Virus record (IMG/VR): IMGVR_UViG_2563366800_000002
Strand: one strand, 5' to 3'
DNA: 15,788 nt
From: a virus
Taxonomy: Duplodnaviria; Heunggongvirae; Uroviricota; Caudoviricetes
Positions 1-14,594 of this stretch are shown here, in pieces. Both the position numbers and the translations under genes were made by a program. The notes under the pieces were generated by a model. The model saw only the letters and a list, made by a program, of their open reading frames with translations. It was not told the DNA's origin and made no database searches. Every line of letters starts with the position of its first letter. Position 1 is the stretch's first letter.

Positions 1-1224
1 ATGGCTGGCACAAACAAACTGAGCGACAAAAAGCTAAAAGCATTGCTGGGTTCTGAGCGTGAAGCGCCGATCATGATTGCCGATGGTGAGGGGCTAAGCG
101 TTAAGGTCTCGAAGCAAGGTAACGTTAGCTGGGTATTTTCATACCGGTTGGGAGGAAGGGGTAGCAAACTCGAACGTTTAACGCTTGGCCGTTACCCTGA
201 TATGCCGCTAAAACTTGCGCGAGAAAAGCGGGAACAGTGTCGCCAGTGGCTGGCTGGTGGGCTTGATCCGAAAACTGAGATTGAGCTGAGCACAGAAGAA
301 ACGCTTAAGCCTGTAACGGTTAAAGACGCCCTGGAATATTGGTTGGTGAATTACGCCAGGAGAAAGCGCAGTGATGAGGCGTTGGTGAGGGCGCAGCTAC
401 GCAAGCATATTTACCCGCGACTTGGTCGTTATCCGATCACCAGATGTGAAACCCGCCATTGGGTGGCCTGTTTTGACGAAATAAACCAGACTAAACCCAT
501 GACCGCCGGCCGCATGTTCCAGATTTCTAAACAGGCGTTACGTTTCTGCAAGGTTCGCCGTTATGCTGCCAGTGATGCTCTGGCCTTTCTCACCATTCAG
601 GATGTAGGCCAGCCATCTGGTCAACGTGATCGCGTATTGTCAGATAGCGAGCTGGCTGATGTGTGGCGCTGTACAGATAGCGATGATCAGCAGCCGTATT
701 ATTCACGTCTGCTCAAAATGCTGGTGCTTTTTGGTGCGCGAACGATGGAAGTTCGCCTTTCTCGATGGTCAGAGTGGGATTTTACATCGTGGATTTGGAC
801 TGTACCGAAAGAGCATAGCAAAACCAGAGAGAAAATCGTGAGGTCGATACCTGAAGCTATACGCCCGTGGCTGGAAGAGTTAAAGCGCGAGACAGGGAAA
901 ACAGGTTTGTTACTGGGCGAAGATCGTACCCGTCAGGCTGTATCATTGAAAGGGCGCAGGCTTTTTAAAGATTTTCACCATAACGAGCCGTGGACACTTC
1001 ACGATCTGCGTCGGACGTTTTCTACGGGGCTAAACAATATGGGTATAGCACCGCATATAGTCGAGCTGCTGTTGGGCCATGCCTTGCCGGGAGTTATGGC
1101 GATTTATAACCGTAGTCTTTACTTACCGGAGAAGCTGGACGCGCTGAACAAGTGGTATGACCGCTTAGAACTTCTCGCGGGTAATCACTCTAATATCGTT
1201 ATTTTAAAGGCTGGTGAAAAATGA
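1..1224 (+). CDS. int: Tyrosine site-specific integrase, P4-type
   Basis: 407-aa ORF. C-terminal catalytic region has HDLRRTF, LLGH and the AIYNR tyrosine typical of tyrosine recombinases; N-terminal region resembles the arm-binding domain of P4-like integrases. Gene sits at the island edge. Confidence 0.9.
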   Translation: MAGTNKLSDKKLKALLGSEREAPIMIADGEGLSVKVSKQGNVSWVFSYRLGGRGSKLERLTLGRYPDMPLKLAREKREQCRQWLAGGLDPKTEIELSTEETLKPVTVKDALEYWLVNYARRKRSDEALVRAQLRKHIYPRLGRYPITRCETRHWVACFDEINQTKPMTAGRMFQISKQALRFCKVRRYAASDALAFLTIQDVGQPSGQRDRVLSDSELADVWRCTDSDDQQPYYSRLLKMLVLFGARTMEVRLSRWSEWDFTSWIWTVPKEHSKTREKIVRSIPEAIRPWLEELKRETGKTGLLLGEDRTRQAVSLKGRRLFKDFHHNEPWTLHDLRRTFSTGLNNMGIAPHIVELLLGHALPGVMAIYNRSLYLPEKLDALNKWYDRLELLAGNHSNIVILKAGEK

Positions 1225-2119: not shown

Positions 2120-2404
2120 ATGCAAATTATCACCTTTACCCCGCCAAATCCTGAACAACGCCGCACCATTCTGGAGGAGTACGGCTTCAAGTTCGATCGC
2201 CGAATCCGCGAAGATGAATGCAGCGAGATCACCAGTCTTTCTCGTTCGAGCCGCTGGAAGATGGAACAGCAGGGGCGCTTCCCGCCGCGCTGTCACTTTG
2301 GCCGCAACAGCTGTGCCTGGCTTCTTTCGGATGTGCTCTGGTGGGTTCGTAATCCGCCTGCCGTGGAAAACGTCAATAACCCGTACAGCCGCAAATCTGC
2401 TTAA
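2120..2404 (+). CDS. alpA: AlpA-family transcriptional regulator (phage/island excision-type regulator)
   Basis: GGAGG at 2111-2115 then ATG at 2120. The 94-aa product has the AlpA-like helix-turn-helix pattern (ITSLSRSSRWKMEQQGRFPP ... AWLLSDVLWWVRN). The ORF-track start at 2060 lacks an RBS. Confidence 0.75.
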   Translation: MQIITFTPPNPEQRRTILEEYGFKFDRRIREDECSEITSLSRSSRWKMEQQGRFPPRCHFGRNSCAWLLSDVLWWVRNPPAVENVNNPYSRKSA

Positions 2405-4076: not shown

Positions 4077-4376
4077 ATGAGAACATATTTATCTGGCTTG
4101 ACTGCCAGCGGTTATGCACACCCCAAAATTATCCCCGGCGCTATTTATTGGGATAAGAACGGCAACAGAGTAACAGTAAAATCGATAATGTTTGACCGTG
4201 TGTATTTTATTCGTGATGGCTATTCATTTCATAGCTCGCTGAACGTGGAGATCTTTATTTGCAGATTCCGGCGGGAAATCCCGCCTTCCAGAAATAACCA
4301 TGTGTCATGTATGGATGTTGATAAAAAACTACAGGAACTGAAAAACATGATTGCCGCGTGGAGAGAGCAGAAATGA
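4077..4376 (+). CDS. Hypothetical small protein, translationally coupled to the primase gene
   Basis: 99-aa ORF. Its TGA (4374-4376) overlaps the primase ATG (4373-4375) as ATGA. Confidence 0.45.
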   Translation: MRTYLSGLTASGYAHPKIIPGAIYWDKNGNRVTVKSIMFDRVYFIRDGYSFHSSLNVEIFICRFRREIPPSRNNHVSCMDVDKKLQELKNMIAAWREQK

Positions 4377-6496
4377 AAAAAGCGCCAAATTTAAAACACC
4401 AGCCACGTGACAAAATGACGGAAGTCATCATTTTTGCGGGTAGTGATGCGTGGGCACATGCGAATCAGTGGCAGGAACAGGACGGGCGACTGGCTGGCGA
4501 TAACGTGCCTCCTGTCTGGCTTGGAGAGCAACAACTTGCCGAACTGGACAACCTGCAAATCGTACCGGACGGACGCTATCGCGTGCGTCTCTATCAGGCG
4601 GGGTTATTGCGTCCGGGGCTTGTTAATACCATCGGGCAGAAACTGGCAGCGGCAGGTGTCAGGGATGCTGATTATTATCCTGAAGGAATGCACAGCCAGA
4701 AACGGGAGAACTGGCGCGAATATCTGGAACGTGAACGGGCAGAGCAGGCGGAAAAGAAAAAGGTAGTTGAACTGCCTGTAAAGAAAAAAGAGCCATGCTA
4801 TCAGGATGATGAATTAAAGCCCCGCGTTGAAAGTCGCGTCGATGGTGTTTTCTGGGTAACGCCCAAAGTGGATAAGCAGTCAGGCGAAATTATCCGGCCT
4901 GAGACGTGGTTATGTTCTCCGCTTGAACTACTGGGAACGGGGACGATCGGTAAAGAGCATTACCGCGTGATGCGCTGGAAAAAATTAGCAAACCATGAAG
5001 TCATCACAATGGCGATCCCGTGTGGTGGCATTGGCGACCGTGACGGCTGGCGGTTGCTTAAAGATCACGGGCTGAATGTGACAACAAACGGCAAATACAG
5101 GGCTATCCTGGCTGACTGGATGCAGTTAAGCGGAAGCCATGAGGAATGGCAGTTAAGCACAACAACGGGCTGGCATTTTGGCGCGTACATCATGCCGGAC
5201 GGTTCAATCATTGGTGATTCTGAAAAACCGATCCTGTTTACCGGAAAAAGTGCCGCTGTTAATGGCTATTCGGTTGCGGGTACGGCGGAGGGCTGGCGCG
5301 ACAGCGTGGCGCGGCTGGCTGGTGGCAATCCGTCCATGATGCTGGGTGTTGCCACGTCACTGGCAGCACCTTTGATTGGCCTTGTTGGTGCTGACGGCTT
5401 CGGGGTACATCTTTTCGAACAGTCATCGGCAGGGAAAACCACCACGCAGAACATCGCTTCAAGTTTATGGGGAGAGCCGGACGCGCAACGGCTGACCTGG
5501 TACGGAACGGCGTTAGGTATCGCCAACGAGGCCGAAGCACACAACGACGGGCTGTTACCCCTGGATGAAATAGGCCAGGCCGGAAACGCGCGGGAAGTGT
5601 CCACGTCAGCCTATACGCTGTTTAACGGTTCGGGGAAATTACAGGGGGCGAAGGACGGCGGCAACAGGGAGATCAAACACTGGCGCACGGTGGCAATCAG
5701 CACCGGAGAAATGGATGTTGAGACATTCCTCAAAAGTGAGGGGGTAAAAGTCAAAGCAGGCCAGCTTGTCCGTCTGCTTAACGTACCGATGGAGAAAGCC
5801 ACGCAATTTCACGAATACAGCACCGGAAAGGCGCACGCAGACGCGTTAAAGGATGCCTGGACTGCAAATCACGGGGCGGCGGGTCGTGAGTGGGTTAAAT
5901 GGCTGGCAGACCACCAGCAGGAGGCAAAGGACACGGTAAGGGAATGCCGCGAACGGTGGCACAACCTGATACCGGAGAGCTACGGCGAGCAGGTCCACCG
6001 CGTGGGGGAACGTTTCGCCATACTGGAGGCTGCGCTTGTGCTTTCCGGTCATGTAACTGGCTGGGCCGCGCAGGAATGCCGGGACGCAATACAGCATAAC
6101 TTTAATGCCTGGGTGAAGGAGTTCGGCACGGGTAACAGGGAATTTAAACAGATGGTTGAACAGGCTGAGGCGTTTTTGTCGTCGTTCGGGTTCAGTCGAT
6201 ACCTTCCTTACCCAAACAGTGATGAGCGTGATTTACCGATTAAAGACCTTGCCGGATACAGAAAGGGGAGTATCAGAAATGAAGATGATGAGTTCCGCTT
6301 TTACACGTTTCCTCATGTGTTTGAGGGTGAGATAGCACAGGGATTTAATCCGTCTCACTTTGCCCGCGCGTTGAGTGCTGCCGGAATGCTGGAAGCGGGT
6401 AACGATCGCCGTTACAAGAAAAAGGCGCTCGGCAAAATTGGGGGGAAGCAGCATGTTTTTTACGTGCTGATGTTCCAGCCTGAAGCAGAAGATTAA
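4373..6496 (+). CDS. Primase/helicase-type replication initiator (P4 alpha-like)
   Basis: About 707 aa from ATG 4373 (the track's 4358 is a GTG five codons upstream). Walker A-like SSAGKTTTQNIASSLWG in the central region; followed directly by an iteron array. Confidence 0.85.
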   Translation: MKKAPNLKHQPRDKMTEVIIFAGSDAWAHANQWQEQDGRLAGDNVPPVWLGEQQLAELDNLQIVPDGRYRVRLYQAGLLRPGLVNTIGQKLAAAGVRDADYYPEGMHSQKRENWREYLERERAEQAEKKKVVELPVKKKEPCYQDDELKPRVESRVDGVFWVTPKVDKQSGEIIRPETWLCSPLELLGTGTIGKEHYRVMRWKKLANHEVITMAIPCGGIGDRDGWRLLKDHGLNVTTNGKYRAILADWMQLSGSHEEWQLSTTTGWHFGAYIMPDGSIIGDSEKPILFTGKSAAVNGYSVAGTAEGWRDSVARLAGGNPSMMLGVATSLAAPLIGLVGADGFGVHLFEQSSAGKTTTQNIASSLWGEPDAQRLTWYGTALGIANEAEAHNDGLLPLDEIGQAGNAREVSTSAYTLFNGSGKLQGAKDGGNREIKHWRTVAISTGEMDVETFLKSEGVKVKAGQLVRLLNVPMEKATQFHEYSTGKAHADALKDAWTANHGAAGREWVKWLADHQQEAKDTVRECRERWHNLIPESYGEQVHRVGERFAILEAALVLSGHVTGWAAQECRDAIQHNFNAWVKEFGTGNREFKQMVEQAEAFLSSFGFSRYLPYPNSDERDLPIKDLAGYRKGSIRNEDDEFRFYTFPHVFEGEIAQGFNPSHFARALSAAGMLEAGNDRRYKKKALGKIGGKQHVFYVLMFQPEAED

Positions 6497-6707: not shown

Positions 6708-7130
6708 ATGACAGCACAGATAGCAGCTTACGGGCGGCTGGTGGCTGACCCGCAGTTAAAGACCACCAGCAAGGGCACACAAATGGCTATGGCAAGCATG
6801 GCGGTCCCCCTGCCGTGCAATCAGGCAGATGACGGACAGGCGACGATGTGGTTATCCGTCCTGGCGTTTGGCAGACAGGCCGACGCACTGGCAAAACACC
6901 ACAAAGGCGAGCTGGTGAGCGTGGCGGGTAACATGCAGGTAAGCCAGTGGACAGGCCAGAACGGGGAAACGCGGCAGGGCTGGCAGGTTATCGCAGACAG
7001 CGTAATCAGTGCCAGAACGGCGCGACCTGGTGGCAAAAAAGGCCAGCAGGGTCAGGCTACTGACGCTCTAAATAGGGCTAAGCAACAGGCGGGGAATGAT
7101 GATCCATACGGGGATAACATACCCTTTTAG
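6708..7130 (+). CDS. ssb: Single-stranded DNA-binding protein (SSB-like)
   Basis: GGAGA RBS then ATG 6708. 140-aa product with a Gly/Gln-rich linker and an acidic C-terminal tip DDPYGDNIPF resembling the SSB DDDIPF tail. Confidence 0.7.
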   Translation: MTAQIAAYGRLVADPQLKTTSKGTQMAMASMAVPLPCNQADDGQATMWLSVLAFGRQADALAKHHKGELVSVAGNMQVSQWTGQNGETRQGWQVIADSVISARTARPGGKKGQQGQATDALNRAKQQAGNDDPYGDNIPF

Positions 7131-7670: not shown

Positions 7671-8816
7671 ATGAAGAAATTAATCGAACTCCGCCAGCAA
7701 AAAAACGCCCTGAAAAACCAGATGCGATCCCTGCTGGAAAAAGCCGACAGTGAAAACCGCAGCCTGAACGATGACGAGGGCAAACAGTTTGATGAACTGC
7801 GTGCAAAAGCCGATTCCCTCGACACAGAAATTTCCCGTCTTGAAGCTGTTGCGGATGAAGAACGTAACCAGCCTGGTGTTTCCGTCGAAGAGAAAATCAC
7901 CAAAGATGAACTGCGCTCTTACATTCTGACCGGGGAAACCCGCAACCTGTCCGGCAGTGTCCCGGCTGATGGTGGCTATACCGTTATTCCCGAGCTGAAT
8001 AAAGAGATTATGCGCCAGCTTGCCGATGAATCGGTGATGCGCAAAATCTGTACCGTTAAAACCATTCACAGCAATGAATTTAAGCAACCGGTTTCCGCTG
8101 GTGGCGCGGTGGTTGAGCATGGCGAGGAAGGTGCGGCACGTAACCAGACGGCAACGCCGAAACTGAACGAAGTCAGCATCCGCCTGTATCCGATCTACGC
8201 TTACCCGAAAACCACTCAGGAAATTATCGATTTTTCCGAAGTCGATATTATGAGCTGGTTATCTTCTGAAATTGGCGACACTTTCGTTGATACCGAAGAA
8301 ACGGATCTGGTTTCCGGTGACGGCGAGAAAAAAGCTAAAGGTTTCCTGGCGTTCCCGCGCACTGCGGATAACGACAAAACCCGTCCTTTCGGTACGCTCC
8401 AGACGAAAAAAGTTACTGGCAGTCTCAGCGCCGACATGCTGATTGACCTGAAATTTACGCTGCGCAATAAGTACCGCAAAAAAGCTGTATGGGTGATGAA
8501 CTCAAATACAGCCGCCTCCGCACAAAAACTGAAAAATGCCACTGGTGATTACATCTGGCGCGATCGTTTACAGGCTGGTGATCCTGATTCTCTGCTGGGG
8601 CTTCCGGTTGAATATCTGGAATTTATGCCGGACGGTGTGATTGCAGTAGGTGACTTTAAGCGCGGTTATTTCATCGTTGACCATGAAACCGGTACGCGTA
8701 CCCGTCCGGACTTCAGCGAACCCGGATTCATTAACATCTATACCCAGAAATATCTGGGCGGTGGTGTGGTGGATTCGAACGCCATCAAGATTCTGGAAAT
8801 TCAGGCTGGTGAGTAA
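7671..8816 (+). CDS. Major capsid protein, HK97-like fold, with N-terminal coiled-coil scaffold-like domain
   Basis: 381-aa ORF. Charged, heptad-like N-terminus (first 70 aa) then a capsid-like body; followed by a strong terminator and a prohead protease gene. Confidence 0.8.
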   Translation: MKKLIELRQQKNALKNQMRSLLEKADSENRSLNDDEGKQFDELRAKADSLDTEISRLEAVADEERNQPGVSVEEKITKDELRSYILTGETRNLSGSVPADGGYTVIPELNKEIMRQLADESVMRKICTVKTIHSNEFKQPVSAGGAVVEHGEEGAARNQTATPKLNEVSIRLYPIYAYPKTTQEIIDFSEVDIMSWLSSEIGDTFVDTEETDLVSGDGEKKAKGFLAFPRTADNDKTRPFGTLQTKKVTGSLSADMLIDLKFTLRNKYRKKAVWVMNSNTAASAQKLKNATGDYIWRDRLQAGDPDSLLGLPVEYLEFMPDGVIAVGDFKRGYFIVDHETGTRTRPDFSEPGFINIYTQKYLGGGVVDSNAIKILEIQAGE

Positions 8817-9426: not shown

Positions 9427-10641
9427 ATGTGGTGGCCTTTTAGTCGTAAAAAAAGCGAGCAGCGTAACCTGTCCATTGATGATTTTCTGGCGCTGTCCGG
9501 CGTACCGAATACCGGATCCGGAGAATATGTTTCTGCCGGGACGGCTGAATCATTGCCTGCAGTGATGAACGCGGTTTCTGTCATCGCTGAGGCGGTGGCC
9601 ACGATGCCGTGTTATCTGTATCTGGTACGTAATGACAAGGGCAGGGAGGCGCGGGAATGGCTGGACAGTCACCCGGTAGATATTCTGCTGAATGAGCAGC
9701 CTAATTCGTGCCAGACACCTTACCAGTTTAAACGCACAATGATGCGTCACTGCCTGCTGAACGGTAACGCCTATGCGGTTATTGAGTGGGGGCAAGACGG
9801 GCAGCCAAAATCACTTCATCCTTATGCGCCGGGGTGTGTTGTACCGGAACGCACAGGCGCACACAAATACCGCTATACCATCACCGAACCCTATACAGGA
9901 ACGGTGCGCACGTATTTACAGGAAGAAGTTCTGCATCTCCGCTATGCCTCGGATGATGGCTTTCTGGGGCGTTCCCCTGTCACGATTTGCCGTGAGGCGC
10001 TTGGGCTTGGCCTTGCTCAACAGCGCCACGGAGCCAGCATTATGAAAGATGGCATGATGGCGGCAGGGATTATCACGTCAGGCGAATGGCTGGACGGCGT
10101 GAAAGGTAAACAGGCATTAGATGCTCTGGAACGCTACAAGGGGGCGAAAAATGCCGGAAAAACGCCAATCCTTGAAGGGGGCATGGATTACAAGCAACTG
10201 GGAATGAGTAACCAGGATGCGGAATGGCTGGCCTCCCGTCGCTTCTCCATTGAAGACATCGCCCGCATGTTCAACGTATCGCCTATTTTTCTGCAGGAAT
10301 ACAGCAACAGCACCTACAGCAATTTCAGCGAGGCAAGCCGCGCGTTTCTGACCATGACAATGCGCCCATGGCTGGCGAACTTCGAACAGCAAATCAAGGC
10401 CGCTTTGCTGGTGGCTTCTCCCGTACCTGGTACCCGTTATCTGGTTGAGTTTGATTCAGCCGATTTATTACGCGCCACACCCACCGAACGTTATGCCACG
10501 TATGAGAAAGGGATTAAGAACGGGATCATGAATCCGAACGAAGCCCGTGAGCGTGAGGGTATGCCGCCGCGTGAAGGTGGTGATGAGTTCAGCCAGGCAT
10601 GGAAACAGACTGTGGAAATTAAAGGGAGAAAAGATGAGTGA
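9427..10641 (+). CDS. Portal protein, HK97 family
   Basis: ATG at 9427 directly after the protease stop (the track's 9337 start would overlap the protease by 90 nt). About 404 aa, placed next to protease and capsid. Confidence 0.8.
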   Translation: MWWPFSRKKSEQRNLSIDDFLALSGVPNTGSGEYVSAGTAESLPAVMNAVSVIAEAVATMPCYLYLVRNDKGREAREWLDSHPVDILLNEQPNSCQTPYQFKRTMMRHCLLNGNAYAVIEWGQDGQPKSLHPYAPGCVVPERTGAHKYRYTITEPYTGTVRTYLQEEVLHLRYASDDGFLGRSPVTICREALGLGLAQQRHGASIMKDGMMAAGIITSGEWLDGVKGKQALDALERYKGAKNAGKTPILEGGMDYKQLGMSNQDAEWLASRRFSIEDIARMFNVSPIFLQEYSNSTYSNFSEASRAFLTMTMRPWLANFEQQIKAALLVASPVPGTRYLVEFDSADLLRATPTERYATYEKGIKNGIMNPNEAREREGMPPREGGDEFSQAWKQTVEIKGRKDE

Positions 10642-10936
10642 AGCCAGAATTACACCTGATGAAGTCAGGGCACATCTTCGACTTGATGATGATTTATCCG
10701 GTGAAGGCGAACTTCTGAAAATGTATACCGATGCGGCGCTGGAAGCCTGCCAGAAGCATATCGGGAAACGTTTTGAAGACGGGCTGGAATTTACCCCGGC
10801 AATGCGTGTTGGTTGCCTGATGTACATCGCTTTCCTGTACGAGAACCGGGAAGCGGTTTCACCAGTGGAGCACTCGGAACTGCCTATGGCTATTTCTGCG
10901 CTCTGGTCAGTTTATCGTGACGTAGGGGTGTACTGA
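10634..10936 (+). CDS. Head-tail connector/adaptor protein (gp6-like)
   Basis: AGGGAG RBS; ATG 10634 overlaps the portal stop. About 100 aa starting MSEARITPDEVRAHLRLDDD, matching the gp6-like connector N-terminal pattern. Confidence 0.65.
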   Translation: MSEARITPDEVRAHLRLDDDLSGEGELLKMYTDAALEACQKHIGKRFEDGLEFTPAMRVGCLMYIAFLYENREAVSPVEHSELPMAISALWSVYRDVGVY

Positions 10937-11376
10937 TGCCGTGGCAACCATTAAGGCGATGCACTGAGCCTGGCTGTAATAAGCGCGTGAAGTCCGGCAA
11001 GTGTGAAGAGCACAGGCGGGCTGCATGGCGTGCAGAGGATGCCAGACGGGGACACCGCCGCGCGCGCGGGTATTCCCGACAGTGGGACAAATACCGCGCC
11101 CTGTACCTGAGCAAAAACCCGTTATGCGTGCGTTGTCTGGCTAAGGGGATTTATACGCCAGCTCTTGTGGTGGATCACATCATTCCCATCAATGGCGGCG
11201 GTGATGTTCTCTTCTGGCCTGAGTGGAATCACCAGGCATTGTGCCAGACGTGCCACAACCGTAAGACGACACGGGAAGATCCAGCCACGAAAGCAAACCG
11301 TAAAGCGGGCATGTATCGCGAGCAGGAAGAACGGGCGGCACACCGTAACGACTGGATGTATGGCGATGATGACTGA
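10936..11376 (+). CDS. HNH endonuclease (packaging-associated)
   Basis: 146-aa ORF with Cys-rich N-terminus and the HNH core VVDHIIPINGGGDVLFWPEWNHQALCQTCHNRKT. Sits just upstream of the terminase genes as in HK97-like cos packaging modules. Confidence 0.85.
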   Translation: MPWQPLRRCTEPGCNKRVKSGKCEEHRRAAWRAEDARRGHRRARGYSRQWDKYRALYLSKNPLCVRCLAKGIYTPALVVDHIIPINGGGDVLFWPEWNHQALCQTCHNRKTTREDPATKANRKAGMYREQEERAAHRNDWMYGDDD

Positions 11377-11545
11377 ACAGGAGCAAACCAGGCTGATACG
11401 TGGACTGATAAGGCAGCGTGACACATGGAAGACACAGGAGACAGAGCACAAAGCCAACAGGACAGGGCGCACAAAACGCACCACAGCGAAGCGATTAACC
11501 GACCGTGACCGCGAGGTCATGGAATGTTTTCGCAATCGCTGGTGA
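11366..11545 (+). CDS. Possible small basic protein (59 aa) overlapping the HNH stop; uncertain
   Basis: Tandem ATG at 11366 and 11369, ORF to TGA at 11545; Arg/Lys/Thr-rich product. No clear RBS; could be a non-coding part of the packaging site. Confidence 0.2.
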   Translation: MMTEQEQTRLIRGLIRQRDTWKTQETEHKANRTGRTKRTTAKRLTDRDREVMECFRNRW

Positions 11546-11553
11546 GGCCGTCA

Positions 11554-11613
11554 GAGGGGGTGGGGGTGGTTTTCAGGACGAAACCGTCCCTGCCGGACAC
11601 CGACCGCCCCCTC
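11554..11613. other. G-rich nested dyad symmetry between HNH and TerS; candidate cos / terminase recognition region
   Basis: GAGGGGGTGG (11554-11563) pairs with CCGCCCCCTC (11604-11613); inner CAGGACG ... CGTCCCTG; followed by T-rich AAATTTTTGTG. The position matches where cos lies in HK97-like genomes. Confidence 0.3.
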
Positions 11614-11663
11614 AAATTTTTGTGCACGGTAATTTTTTTGAAAATAATTGGGCGAAAAAAAAC

Positions 11664-12020
11664 ATGGCAAGACCACCAAAAGCCCCCGCTTACCTGGATG
11701 AAATCGCGGTCAGGCAGTGGAAGGAAAAATCGCGCCAGCTTTCCGGGCGGGAAGACCTTACCCCCGCCGACTGGAGCAATCTGGAACTGTATTGTGTTAA
11801 CTACTCCATATACCGCAAAGCCGTCGAAGACCTTGCGACGCGCGGGTTCAGCATTGTTAACAGTCAGGGCAGCGAGAGCAGAAACCCCGCCCTGAGCGCA
11901 AAGGCTGACGCAGAAAGAATAATGATCAAAATGGCTTCTTTGCTGGGTTTTGACCCGGTAAGCCGCCGCAGAAATCCACCGGAAACAGAGGAAGAGGACG
12001 AGCTTGACCGCCTGGCATGA
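11664..12020 (+). CDS. terS: Terminase small subunit, P27 family
   Basis: Product from ATG 11664 starts MARPPKAPAYLDE and ends ...LLGFDPVSRRRNPPE, fitting the P27-family TerS pattern. The track's longer ORF from 11505 runs through the dyad region and was not used. Confidence 0.75.
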   Translation: MARPPKAPAYLDEIAVRQWKEKSRQLSGREDLTPADWSNLELYCVNYSIYRKAVEDLATRGFSIVNSQGSESRNPALSAKADAERIMIKMASLLGFDPVSRRRNPPETEEEDELDRLA

Positions 12021-13665
12021 GTACGCAGAAGGCGTAAAAAACGGCAAAATTACGGCCTGTAAACGACTGAAACAGGCCGTTAAACGGTATTTTTCTGACC
12101 TTGAAAACCCCCTTTACACGTTCGATCCGGAGGTCGTGGAGCGGTTTATTGCCTTTTCCAGGGTGTGTCCGCACGTAAAAGGCGCAATGCGCGGTAGCCC
12201 CATTGAGCTGGAGCCGTGGCAGCAGTTCGCCTTTGCGTGCATCCTGGGCTTTAAGGTTAAGGCCACCGGACGGCGCAAATACACCAGCGCATTCATTGAA
12301 GTACCTCGAAAAAATGCCAAATCCACGGTCGCCGCTATCCTGGCTAACTGGTTTCTGGTTATGGAAAACGGGCAGCAGGATATTTACACCGCCGCCGTGA
12401 GTCGTGATCAGGCGCGGATCGTGTTTGATGATGCGCGTCAGATGTGCCTTTTATCCCGACCGTTACGAAAGCGGGTAAATATTCAGGCACACAAGGTGAT
12501 ACACCCGAAAACCAACAGTCTGTTAAAGCCACTGGCAGCAAAAGCAGCAACCATTGAAGGTACAAACCCGAGTCTTGCCATTGTGGATGAATATCACCTG
12601 CACCCTGACAACGGGGTTTATTCCGCGCTTGAACTGGGAATGGGGGCACGCCCGGAGGGGCTGTTATTTGCCATCACCACATCGGGGAGCAACGTTGTTT
12701 CAGCCTGTAAACAACACTACGACTATTGCTGCCAGATACTGGATGGTGAAGAGGTGAACGAATCCATGTTCGTTCTGATTTATGAGCTGGATGATGAAAG
12801 CGAGGTTGACGATCCGGCGATGTGGATAAAGGCGAATCCCAATATCGATGTTTCCGTAGATCGTGAAAAACTGGCCTCAACCATCCAGAAAGCGCGGGGT
12901 ATTCCGTCGCAGTGGGTGGAAATGCTCACCAAGCGATTCAATATCTGGTGTCAGGGGGCTACGCCGTGGATGGGTAACGGTGCATGGGCTGAGTGCGCCG
13001 GAACGTTCACGGAGGAAGATTTACACGGTCAGGAGTGTTACGCGGGGCTTGATTTATCATCCACAAGCGACATCTCCAGCGTGTGCTATGCCTTTCCGGT
13101 TGGTAAAACCATTATGCTGGTTTCTCGTCACTATCTGCCGGAATTTCAGCTACAGAACCCCGCCAATAAAAACCGCGCCATCTATCGCCAGTGGGCAAAG
13201 GCGGGCTGGATACGCACAACACCGGGTGACTGCATTGATTATGACCGTATCCGTGATGACATCATGGCGGATGCAGAGAATTTCAATATCAGGCTGGTGG
13301 GCTTTGATACGTGGAACGCCACGCACCTGAGAACGCAGTTACAGGGGGCAGGCTTTGAGGTGGAGCCGTTCCCTCAAACCTACCTTCGTTTCAGTCCGGC
13401 GGCGAAATCGTTCGAGGTTTTTGTTAACCGGAAGGTGATTGTGCATCGTGGTGATCCGGTGCTGGCCTGGTCAATGAGTAATGTTGTGATGCAGAGTGAC
13501 GCGAACGCCAATATCAAGCCGAACAAGAAAAAATCATCCAACAAGATAGACCCGAGCGTTGCGGCGCTGATGGCGTTTGGCACATTCCAGGCTGAGCATG
13601 AGGAATTTGCATTTGATATGAGCGACAGCCAGAAAGAGCGACTAGCGGCATTTGATGGGGTATGA
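12004..13665 (+). CDS. terL: Terminase large subunit
   Basis: 553-aa ORF. N-terminus (W.EYAEGV.NGKI.A ... IELEPWQQF) and ATPase region are typical of TerL. The only in-frame start near the N-terminus is TTG at 12004, overlapping terS by 17 nt. Confidence 0.8.
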   Translation: MTAWHEYAEGVKNGKITACKRLKQAVKRYFSDLENPLYTFDPEVVERFIAFSRVCPHVKGAMRGSPIELEPWQQFAFACILGFKVKATGRRKYTSAFIEVPRKNAKSTVAAILANWFLVMENGQQDIYTAAVSRDQARIVFDDARQMCLLSRPLRKRVNIQAHKVIHPKTNSLLKPLAAKAATIEGTNPSLAIVDEYHLHPDNGVYSALELGMGARPEGLLFAITTSGSNVVSACKQHYDYCCQILDGEEVNESMFVLIYELDDESEVDDPAMWIKANPNIDVSVDREKLASTIQKARGIPSQWVEMLTKRFNIWCQGATPWMGNGAWAECAGTFTEEDLHGQECYAGLDLSSTSDISSVCYAFPVGKTIMLVSRHYLPEFQLQNPANKNRAIYRQWAKAGWIRTTPGDCIDYDRIRDDIMADAENFNIRLVGFDTWNATHLRTQLQGAGFEVEPFPQTYLRFSPAAKSFEVFVNRKVIVHRGDPVLAWSMSNVVMQSDANANIKPNKKKSSNKIDPSVAALMAFGTFQAEHEEFAFDMSDSQKERLAAFDGV

Positions 13666-13955
13666 CGAGAATGACTGAAACCGATCTACTAAAAATAATT
13701 CGCTGCGTTACCGGAGTCTGCCAGGCAACAGGCAAACCGGAGGCCAAGCAGCCGGATACCGTCACCGCTGAAAATTACGCGCGTGTGGTGGCTAAGGTGA
13801 TGCGCCGTGACGGTATTGAGCTTAACGGCGTGGATATGCGCAACATACGAACCAGAGTCCTTGAGTTGCTGGCATACCGTCGCCGTTCTCAACAACGGAG
13901 GGAGAGCGCGAAAAATACTTACCAGTGGAAGAAGCCGGAACGGTTGCGGCGGTAG
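13662..13955 (+). CDS. Hypothetical protein, last gene of the packaging operon
   Basis: 97-aa ORF; ATG 13662 overlaps the terL TGA (ATGA). Basic C-terminus (RRRSQQRRESAK). No recognisable motif. Confidence 0.4.
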   Translation: MTRMTETDLLKIIRCVTGVCQATGKPEAKQPDTVTAENYARVVAKVMRRDGIELNGVDMRNIRTRVLELLAYRRRSQQRRESAKNTYQWKKPERLRR

Positions 13956-14294
13956 ATTCCTGATATTCAGGAAAACCACGAATCTGTGGGTTTTACTGGC
14001 GCGGTTACGGCGGTGACACGCACCGAGGCAGAACAATTACCGTAGGTTAAAGCGACAGTATTCACACCAAAGGCAGAAATTAGCGGTTAACGTAACTGAC
14101 TGATATTTTCAGGAACAGCCAACGGCTGAGGCCGGAGCTATAAGAATAGCTTTGGGTACAGTCCTCAGTTTTGAGGGATGTTAACCAACTGAATAATAAG
14201 CAAACCTCAAAATTGAGTTTTGTATCTGCCTGAGTTATTTCTGTGCTAACTTGTTGATATTCCCGACGGCCCAAAAATGGGTTGGCTGGTGGGT

Positions 14295-14412
14295 GAGTTG
14301 CAGATTTGCAACTCGACCATGAAACTACGGAAACTACCCGTAGTTTGGGTAGTAAGAGCAACACCCAGATTTTGGGGCTTACTCGCGATCCCCAAATAAA
14401 GGGGATCGGTGG
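14295..14412. repeat. 118-bp structured repeat, copy A
   Basis: Six mismatches to copy B over 118 aligned positions, no indels. Starts with the near-palindrome GAGTTGCAGATTTGCAACTC and contains further inverted repeats (AAACTACGG / CCGTAGTTT; CCCC / GGGG). Confidence 0.75.
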
Positions 14413-14442
14413 CATCACTGGCCCCACTTTCCTGATGTGTTT

Positions 14443-14594
14443 GCGGGTTATTTGGGAGAGGTTGCGGGTTATTTTGAATGACTTGCGGGTTACGATTTGG
14501 CTAACATTTGAACATGTCATTTTTCAACGCATTGATATTAAATAATAAAAAATACTTAGCACGCGAAGATAACCCGCTAACCCGCATAACCCGC
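14443..14594. repeat. Second iteron cluster: GCGGGTTAT / GCGGGTTAC x3 (14443-14493), AT-rich spacer, complement ATAACCCGC-type x3 (14569-14594)
   Basis: Same 9-mer and the same inverted layout as the origin at 6521-6643, about 7.9 kb away. Confidence 0.55.

Follow-up and report, generated by a model that had tools for sequence, protein, structure and literature searches.

Evidence for a cos site upstream of terS

The IMG/VR virus record IMGVR_UViG_2563366800_000002, analysed here over its full length of 15,788 nucleotides (the window), carries a capsid-forming phage-inducible chromosomal island (cf-PICI) that lies beside hpt in Escherichia coli and is a relative of EcCIEDL933. The 118-bp stretch 11546–11663 of this window, directly upstream of the gene for the small terminase subunit TerS, is with high probability the cohesive-end (cos) site of this satellite, and of the type known from phages HK97 and SfV. 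An initial annotation had placed a candidate cos between the HNH endonuclease gene and terS, and this placement is supported by conserved sequence blocks, by their register with the DNA ends of SfI/SfV and HK97, and by a contig break in the related sequence vB_KppS-Ant. Those features of a 3′-cos of the HK97/SfV type that can be read from the sequence are found, namely the position between the HNH gene and terS-terL, a large terminase subunit (TerL) of HK97 type, a TerS related to that of SfV, and the succession of a G-run, a C-rich decamer and an A/T tract. As a locus, cos is well supported and very probably correct; from the same sequences we infer the exact nick positions, the polarity of the overhang and the assignment of proteins to the individual blocks.

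In alignments of 60 distinct IMG/VR relatives the gap upstream of terS displays three conserved blocks (Table 1). Expressed as mean pairwise identity over 15 diverged representatives, the G-rich block A (G-block) reaches 0.905, the core of the C-rich block B (11604–11621, CCGCCCCCTCAAATTTTT) 0.922 and block C 0.909, compared to 0.56, 0.51 and 0.68 at the third codon positions of the HNH gene, of a small open reading frame (ORF) following it, and of terS, respectively. The three blocks are more constrained than the flanking synonymous sites. Their geometry is conserved as well: the end of the G-block and the first T of a T5 run (11617–11621) are separated by 48–50 nt in 46 of 46 elements despite the variable sequence of the interior, and the distance from this T5 to a T7 run (11633–11639) is 15–16 nt, again in 46 of 46. 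The composite motif GGGGG-N45-58-AATTTTT-N8-14-TTTTTTGAAAA has one site in the window, in two overlapping registers, and none in 200 shuffles; it is present in 128 of the 181 loci examined, nearly always as a single site upstream of terS.

The distribution of the blocks was surveyed by scanning one genome per species for their presence upstream of terS. They are located directly 5′ of terS in, among others, Klebsiella, Citrobacter, Pluralibacter, Serratia, Rahnella, Erwinia, Photorhabdus and many Xenorhabdus, as well as in Aeromonas, Gilliamella, Frischella, Haemophilus and Rodentibacter, and also in an element of Pasteurella with a TerS of 60% identity. The G-block is thereby found across elements of Enterobacterales, Aeromonas, Orbales and Pasteurellales. 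Furthermore, the experimentally validated prototype EcCIEDL933 carries the same three blocks.

Single loci deviate from this arrangement. In Xenorhabdus hominickii (L147) the G-block is expanded to telomere-like tandem GGGGTA units (GGGGTAGGGGTAGGGGTAGGGGTAGGGGTATC), which could form a G-quadruplex, with the remainder of the site intact. A second copy in the same species (L179), which reads ...CCTCCTGCAATTTTTTTGAAAATAA, is missing the part from the T5 run up to where block C begins and is probably a defective cos. The terS-cos module is often multi-copy in Xenorhabdus genomes, with four loci in X. mauleonii (L123, L137, L138 and L178) and three each in X. anantnagensis and X. kozodoii.

Register with the mapped ends of SfI, SfV and HK97

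In SfI, which is closely related to SfV, a 10-nt gap (TGCCCGCCCC) became apparent when run-off sequences of virion DNA were compared with the prophage, and was taken as the cohesive end (PMC3636060); the same decamer is located at positions 8–17 of the SfV record. HK97 DNA is cut between the last and the first base of its record, leaving a 10-nt 3′ overhang (PMC11331095, PMC9410871), and this record terminates with ...GACCGCCGCCAAA. The minimal TerS site of HK97 comprises positions +15 to +29, CTAACCCGATTTTTT (PMC11331095). The joined ends of SfV and of HK97 were aligned by MAFFT to the window together with KpCIDSM30104 and one element each from Xenorhabdus and Haemophilus. Both the SfI/SfV decamer and the terminal 10 nt of HK97 occupy the columns of window positions 11601–11610 in this alignment, and the HK97 TerS site aligns to 11625–11639 (CACGGTAATTTTTTT), within block C. 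By homology, the nicks are thus predicted between 11600 and 11601 on the bottom strand and between 11610 and 11611 on the top strand, within about 5 nt either way; the chances that they are right to within these 5 nt are roughly even. Relative to the left end predicted in this manner, block C spans +14 to +37.

The layout of SfV/SfI is the same as that of the window, with an HNH gene immediately upstream, a homologous TerS, and a G-rich block followed after ~45–50 nt by a C-rich decamer and a T-run. In both SfV and the window the G-run is an inverted copy of the C-rich decamer, SfV having a perfect 8-nt pair (GGGGCGGG / CCCGCCCC). Outside these short motifs, however, the sequences diverge. In SfV a T7 run directly follows the decamer and an A5 tract lies further on, whereas the window has T5 and then T7GAAAATAA; moreover, SfV is a complete phage with tail genes and does not harbor a small ORF between the HNH gene and cos.

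HK97 shares with the window a homologous TerL, an HNH gene (gp74) before cos and terS-terL (gp1, gp2) after it, as well as an upstream G-run, a C-rich terminal decamer and a T7 tract at about +23/+24 within the TerS-binding region +15..+29. In contrast to the window, the HK97 G-run is ~65 nt away from the T7 tract, 319 nt separate gp74 from the end, the block sequences are different, and its TerS (gp1) has no detectable sequence similarity to the TerS of the window. The cos of phage lambda is comparable by analogy only, in the tripartite logic of cosQ, cosN and cosB with the small-terminase site downstream and beside the terminase genes; its 12-nt overhangs are 5′, it employs no HNH partner, and its Nu1/gpA terminase is unrelated. 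A 5′-cos of lambda type was rejected for the window, where TerS is of the P27 family, TerL of HK97 type and an HNH gene present. A comparison with a staphylococcal cos decamer was dropped, as the literature search for it returned irrelevant matches only.

A contig break in the virion sequence of KpCIDSM30104

The record LR881103.1 ('Escherichia phage vB_KppS-Ant', 16.5 kb) was assembled from Nextera XT reads of DNA from particles propagated on Klebsiella pneumoniae DSM 30104 (PMC8006926), a strain harboring the cf-PICI KpCIDSM30104 that was investigated by He et al. (10.1101/2025.02.11.637232). The contig is linear and runs from a point 22 nt upstream of terS to within the G-block region. Over 200 nt at either end it is identical to the chromosome of ATCC 13883 (= DSM 30104), and because of this exact match of the record ends we identify vB_KppS-Ant by sequence as KpCIDSM30104. 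Between the two ends, 69 nt of the chromosome (GAACACGAGGGCGCCAGGCACCACCCGCCCCCTCAAATTTTTTCGCACGGTGATTTTTTTGAAAATAAA) are absent from the record; they hold blocks B and C, and the predicted decamer is separated from the two edges by 21 nt and 38 nt. The terminal tens of bases of linear molecules are poorly represented in transposase libraries. The gap suggests a linear molecule ending at this site, as a circular or permuted template would be assembled across it. For the packaged DNA of KpCIDSM30104, a high-molecular-weight band has been attributed to annealed cohesive cos ends (He et al., 10.1101/2025.02.11.637232).

The same vB_KppS-Ant has been published as a filamentous ssDNA phage, with a 'tail length tape measure protein' annotated after TerL. 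Klebsiella phage P12620-1 (PQ569648.1), considered as a second virion record, was rejected since it looks chimeric: in this 106.5-kb record a terminal cf-PICI segment (840–16704) is fused to unrelated DNA exactly at the start of terS and stops inside the small ORF. A G-block scan of IMG/VR for contigs ending inside the site returned 20 loci, none of them informative, and among the IMG/VR contigs found by TerS none ends at the site, with the exception of one (L062) that starts ~60 nt upstream.

The packaging enzymes

The order HNH, candidate cos, TerS and TerL given in the initial annotation is confirmed by gene coordinates and family matches (Table 1). Among solved structures in the PDB, TerL has HK97 large terminase (6Z6D) as its sole match (E 7.6e-43, residues 46–541), while TerS has no match among PDB sequences. 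An HNH gene beside the terminase genes together with an HK97-type TerL is the mark of HNH-dependent cos systems, as relayed from Kala 2014 in PMC9410871, and from their sequences the packaging enzymes of the window belong to this class. The HNH protein is presumed to be the partner of TerL in cos cleavage. In the relative EcCIEDL933, mutants in HNH, TerS or TerL each lose transfer (Alqurainy et al., 10.1101/2022.09.08.507074).

The terS frame is open upstream through the entire cos region, from a GTG at 11505, which gives rise to a spurious 171-aa ORF (11505–12020). As the relatives carry GGAAA and then an in-frame TAA 6 nt before the ATG, the true start of TerS is at 11664.

Table 1. Features of the cf-PICI in the window and of its predicted cos site, in positional order.
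Feature	Position	Strand	Remarks
Tyrosine integrase (int)	1–1224		
DUF6387 protein			between int and AlpA in gene order
AlpA regulator	2120–2404		E 5.3e-10
ORF6N protein, then DUF4222 protein			after AlpA and before the primase in gene order
DUF927 primase	4358–6496		
Single-stranded DNA-binding protein (SSB)	6708–7130		
Major capsid protein	7671–8816		
Prohead protease, then portal			between major capsid and adaptor in gene order
Head-tail adaptor/connector	10634–10936		Ad1-like, phrog_40; single gene between portal and HNH
HNH endonuclease	10936–11376	+	Pfam HNH E 8.8e-10; phrog_144 E 3.6e-45; PDB 5H0M (HNH endonuclease) E 9.3e-16
Small basic protein	11369–11545	+	58 aa from the conserved ATG; alternative starts 11360 (PGAP) and 11366; start overlaps HNH stop (ATGACTGA)
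Outer inverted repeat	11554–11613		arms 11554–11563 (GAGGGGGTGG) and 11604–11613 (CCGCCCCCTC), 9/10 complementary, 40 nt apart
Block A (G-block)	11556–11582	unstranded	GGGGGTGGGGGTGGTTTTCAGGACGAA (GGGGTGGGGG..GTTTTCAGGACRAA)
Spacer	11583–11594	unstranded	variable sequence, fixed length; identity 0.51
Block B	11595–11621	unstranded	GGACACCGACCGCCCCCTCAAATTTTT, C-rich, then T5; in alignment with the end regions of SfV and HK97; putative nicking region, equivalent to cosN
Predicted 10-nt 3′ cohesive end	11601–11610	unstranded	CGACCGCCCC; by homology, from MAFFT columns
Block C	11624–11647	unstranded	GCACGGTAATTTTTTTGAAAATAA = GCACGGTGATTTTTTTGAAAATAA, GCACGG..T7GAAAATAA; predicted TerS site (cosB equivalent)
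Variable leader / ribosome-binding region of terS	11648–11663	+	identity 0.66; GGAAA and in-frame TAA in relatives
TerS, P27 family	11664–12020	+	Pfam Terminase_4 E 1.6e-23; 36% identity to SfV TerS, E 7e-21
TerL, HK97 type	12004–13665	+	Pfam TerL_ATPase and TerL_nuclease; PDB 6Z6D

Proposed packaging mechanism

Upon helper induction, the element would excise, circularise and replicate into concatemers. The satellite TerS would then bind block C, just 3′ of the cut, and TerL together with HNH would nick the two strands ~10 nt apart within the C-rich block, leaving CGACCGCCCC as a 3′ overhang. Packaging would proceed rightward, with terS-terL entering first, into the small capsids made by the satellite, and up to the next cos. 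Block A, located 48–50 nt from the T5 run, may act as a third required element on the 5′ side of the cut. As a conserved upstream cos element it may, by analogy with lambda cosQ, contribute to enzyme positioning or elicit the terminating cut. The small protein, if co-translated with HNH, might serve as a packaging accessory.

Packaging of satellite and helper has been described as independent and mutually exclusive (Alqurainy et al., 10.1101/2022.09.08.507074). That the two do not cross would follow from the blocks of the window, because these share the architecture of HK97 and SfV but not the sequence. To spread between species, cf-PICIs package nothing but themselves into capsids of their own and borrow tails, and cos would be the cis-acting site of this exclusivity; the predicted cut at 11601–11610, the putative TerS site and the G-block at fixed distance allow direct tests of what separates satellite and helper packaging. 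The element type, the gene order and the requirement for HNH, TerS and TerL have already been published, and the position of cos is as synteny predicts. A description of a cf-PICI cos sequence was not found in the open texts searched. The present analysis adds a cut prediction at base level, a family-wide motif of rigid geometry and the small ORF as a real, rapidly evolving gene. Furthermore, cf-PICIs of this lineage can be recognised in genomes and viromes by the consensus motif, which also helps to spot mislabelled 'phage' records.

Several points weigh against the assignment in its details. The nick positions were derived from a short alignment with two phages, and the location of the overhang on the right end of the HK97 GenBank record is an interpretation of 'cleavage between -1 and +1' and '10-nt 3′ overhang'. 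The geometry of the HK97 TerS site transfers only weakly, because gp1 lacks sequence similarity to the TerS of the window, and the TerS site of SfV is unmapped. The gap in vB_KppS-Ant is asymmetric about the predicted cut, with 21–31 nt on one side versus 38 nt on the other, and could partly reflect assembly behaviour at the T-runs. Mapped physical ends of any cf-PICI were not found in the accessible literature searched, and neither was a documented function of the G-block.

Alternative explanations

The initial annotation had described a G-rich nested dyad at 11554–11613 and a T-rich tract within a 288-bp gap between HNH and TerS (11377–11663). Dyad and T-rich tract are present as placed, but the inner 5-bp hairpin (11576–11589) is not conserved. 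The interval amounts to 287 nt and is mostly occupied by a real gene, the small ORF, for which reason the true non-coding gap is restricted to the 118 nt at 11546–11663. A GC-rich inverted repeat close to a T5 run could be an intrinsic terminator or attenuator between the head and HNH genes and terS-terL, with its conservation stemming from RNA structure; we regard this as very unlikely. As RNA, the dyad region folds with -38 kcal/mol, which is a modest excess over shuffled sequences (z = -2.39, 4 of 200 shuffles as good), and the outer helix is paired in 84% of cells across the relatives. The inner hairpin, however, is paired in 40% of cells only and is specific to the lineage of the window, and informative covariation is absent from the outer helix, so that the complementarity of its arms says nothing on RNA or DNA structure. 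The right arm shares part of its positions with the predicted cohesive end. The loop of the outer stem is 40 nt long and AAA intervenes between stem and T5; the dyad hairpin was not called by the terminator scan, and the region has no match in Rfam. Moreover, conservation and fixed spacing reach 35 nt past the stem into block C, the homologous positions of SfI/SfV and HK97 are physical DNA ends, and a strong terminator would sever the terminase genes from their operon.

Equally improbable is a pac-type site with headful packaging of permuted, terminally redundant DNA. In pac phages, TerS typically binds close to or inside terS, and the ends of this very element are unmapped, yet the class of the packaging enzymes is that of HNH-dependent cos systems, cohesive ends have been reported for the related KpCIDSM30104, whose virion contig is linear with a clean gap and no terminal overlap, and the site is in register with mapped cos ends. 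Nor do we give much credit to the third possibility, that the A/T-rich block C together with its flanks acts as promoter or operator of terS-terL, bound by a late activator or by integration host factor (IHF), with the cut located elsewhere. The A/T tracts and TCAAATTTTTG, which resembles part of the IHF consensus, lie 20–50 nt 5′ of terS, and the Pasteurella copy AATCAAATTTTTA fits WATCAANNNNTTR exactly. In most lineages, however, the match to the IHF consensus is imperfect, and with a perfect one in Pasteurella only, the IHF reading of TCAAATTTTTG was not adopted. A sigma-70-like promoter on the + strand was not found by the scan, and an IHF site and cos could be present together, as in lambda cosB. 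A promoter would leave the G-block, the C-rich decamer, the 48–50 nt spacing and the break of the virion contig unexplained.

A conserved small gene between HNH and the predicted cos

The initial annotation had left open whether a 59-aa ORF at 11366–11545 is real. The ORF is present and, judged by conservation, a real gene, whose start, as conserved in the relatives, is the ATG at 11369. The match to phrog_3173 covers the whole ORF (E 6.3e-27), the PGAP pipeline annotates the ORF in an identical copy in strain CFS3292 and in EcCIEDL933, and its frame is open in four diverged lineages. These share the N-terminus M(T/N)E(Q/K)(E/D)..L...L.R.R(D/E).(W/F) and the C-terminus (K/R)R..(E/Q/D)R(D/E)RE(V/L/I)(M/R)E(C/A)FRNR, and in the lineages compared the stop codon is always located ~10–13 nt 5′ of the G-block. 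The ratio of non-synonymous to synonymous substitution rates (dN/dS, Nei-Gojobori) is 0.07–0.5 within lineages. In the clade of the window itself, comparison with its relative L020 gives 7 non-synonymous and 0 synonymous changes in this ORF. As the conserved ATG at 11369 overlaps the stop of HNH, translational coupling of the two genes is suggested.

An AlphaFold (AF2) model of the small protein (mean pLDDT 76, pTM 0.36) consists of a helix at residues 3–33, a disordered basic linker and a helix at residues 45–55; it shows no recognisable fold and was judged insufficient for a fold search. The gene is not present intact in all elements: it carries a premature stop in three loci (L040, L017 and L010) and a frameshift in two (L079 and L080), it is deleted in a Citrobacter-type lineage (L052, L061 and L113), and the Xenorhabdus, Haemophilus and Pasteurella elements showed no trace of its conserved end (TTCCGCAACCGCTGA) 5′ of the G-block. 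A broken or absent ORF in a minority of otherwise intact-looking elements suggests that the gene is dispensable or that these copies are decaying.

The small protein may be a packaging accessory. In EcCIEDL933, mutation of the 'hypothetical gene 1792' severely reduces transfer (Alqurainy et al., 10.1101/2022.09.08.507074). This gene may be either the small ORF or the ORF after TerL; the old numbers have no counterpart among the RefSeq tags. A more speculative model, which we consider doubtful, would see the cf-PICI cos as a three-part, helper-independent site in which the G-block at its rigid distance forms a second protein-recognition element, perhaps positioning HNH or TerL or acting like cosQ, and in principle common to HK97 and SfV; the fast-evolving small basic protein (phrog_3173), co-translated with HNH and with a gene that ends 10 nt before the G-block, would be a lineage-specific packaging accessory that tunes cos recognition or shields the satellite from the helper terminase.

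The element, its host and its relatives

The initial annotation had taken the presence of head and packaging genes in the absence of tail genes as the signature of a capsid-forming satellite. This view holds: all hallmarks of a cf-PICI including alpA are present. Integrase and alpA are accompanied by a replication module of PICI type, with the DUF927 primase and SSB; the head and packaging genes are those of the family, though with one adaptor gene versus two in the prototypes; and neither tail nor lysis genes were found among the window ORFs between int and hpt. The element extends from before position 1 to ~14–15 kb, within the size range of about 10–18 kb of cf-PICIs. The family has already been described (Alqurainy et al., 10.1101/2022.09.08.507074; He et al., 10.1101/2025.02.11.637232), and induction by a helper and transfer on helper tails have been demonstrated for its members EcCIEDL933 and KpCIDSM30104 in the same studies.

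EcCIEDL933 and KpCIDSM30104 are of the same element type as the window and have the same gene order and the same three intergenic blocks; their transfer has been shown to require HNH, TerS and TerL. In contrast to the window, they are integrated at roxA/phoQ instead of hpt and possess two genes between portal and HNH, for head closure and connector proteins (15296–15923 in L001, the vB_KppS-Ant record, and 31104–31735 in L109). Head closure and connector proteins have been linked to tail compatibility (He et al., 10.1101/2025.02.11.637232). Because a single adaptor gene replaces this pair, the lineage of the window may attach tails differently or rely on a protein of the helper.

The 1085 nt from the HNH gene to the end of terS (10936–12020) were found in 515 of 5426 complete E. 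coli genomes, in all cases on the chromosome and in some genomes at up to 5 places. The copy of CFS3292 mentioned above (NZ_CP026935.2) adjoins hpt and is 100% identical over this segment. Unlike the window, it contains an IS1A within its regulatory/replication region, ISApl1 has inserted between element and hpt, and its DUF6387 gene is split (differences noted at 4355–5052 and 15689–16663).

No defence gene was recognised by PADLOC among the accessory ORFs or in the small ORF. Between the last satellite gene and hpt, a 146-aa ORF on the - strand (14080–14520), without a Pfam or PADLOC match, may be cargo of the satellite or be located at the attachment-site junction. Directly 3′ of TerL, a 97-aa ORF of unknown function (13662–13955) matches phrog_1561 (E 3.7e-47) and is found after TerL in EcCIEDL933 too.

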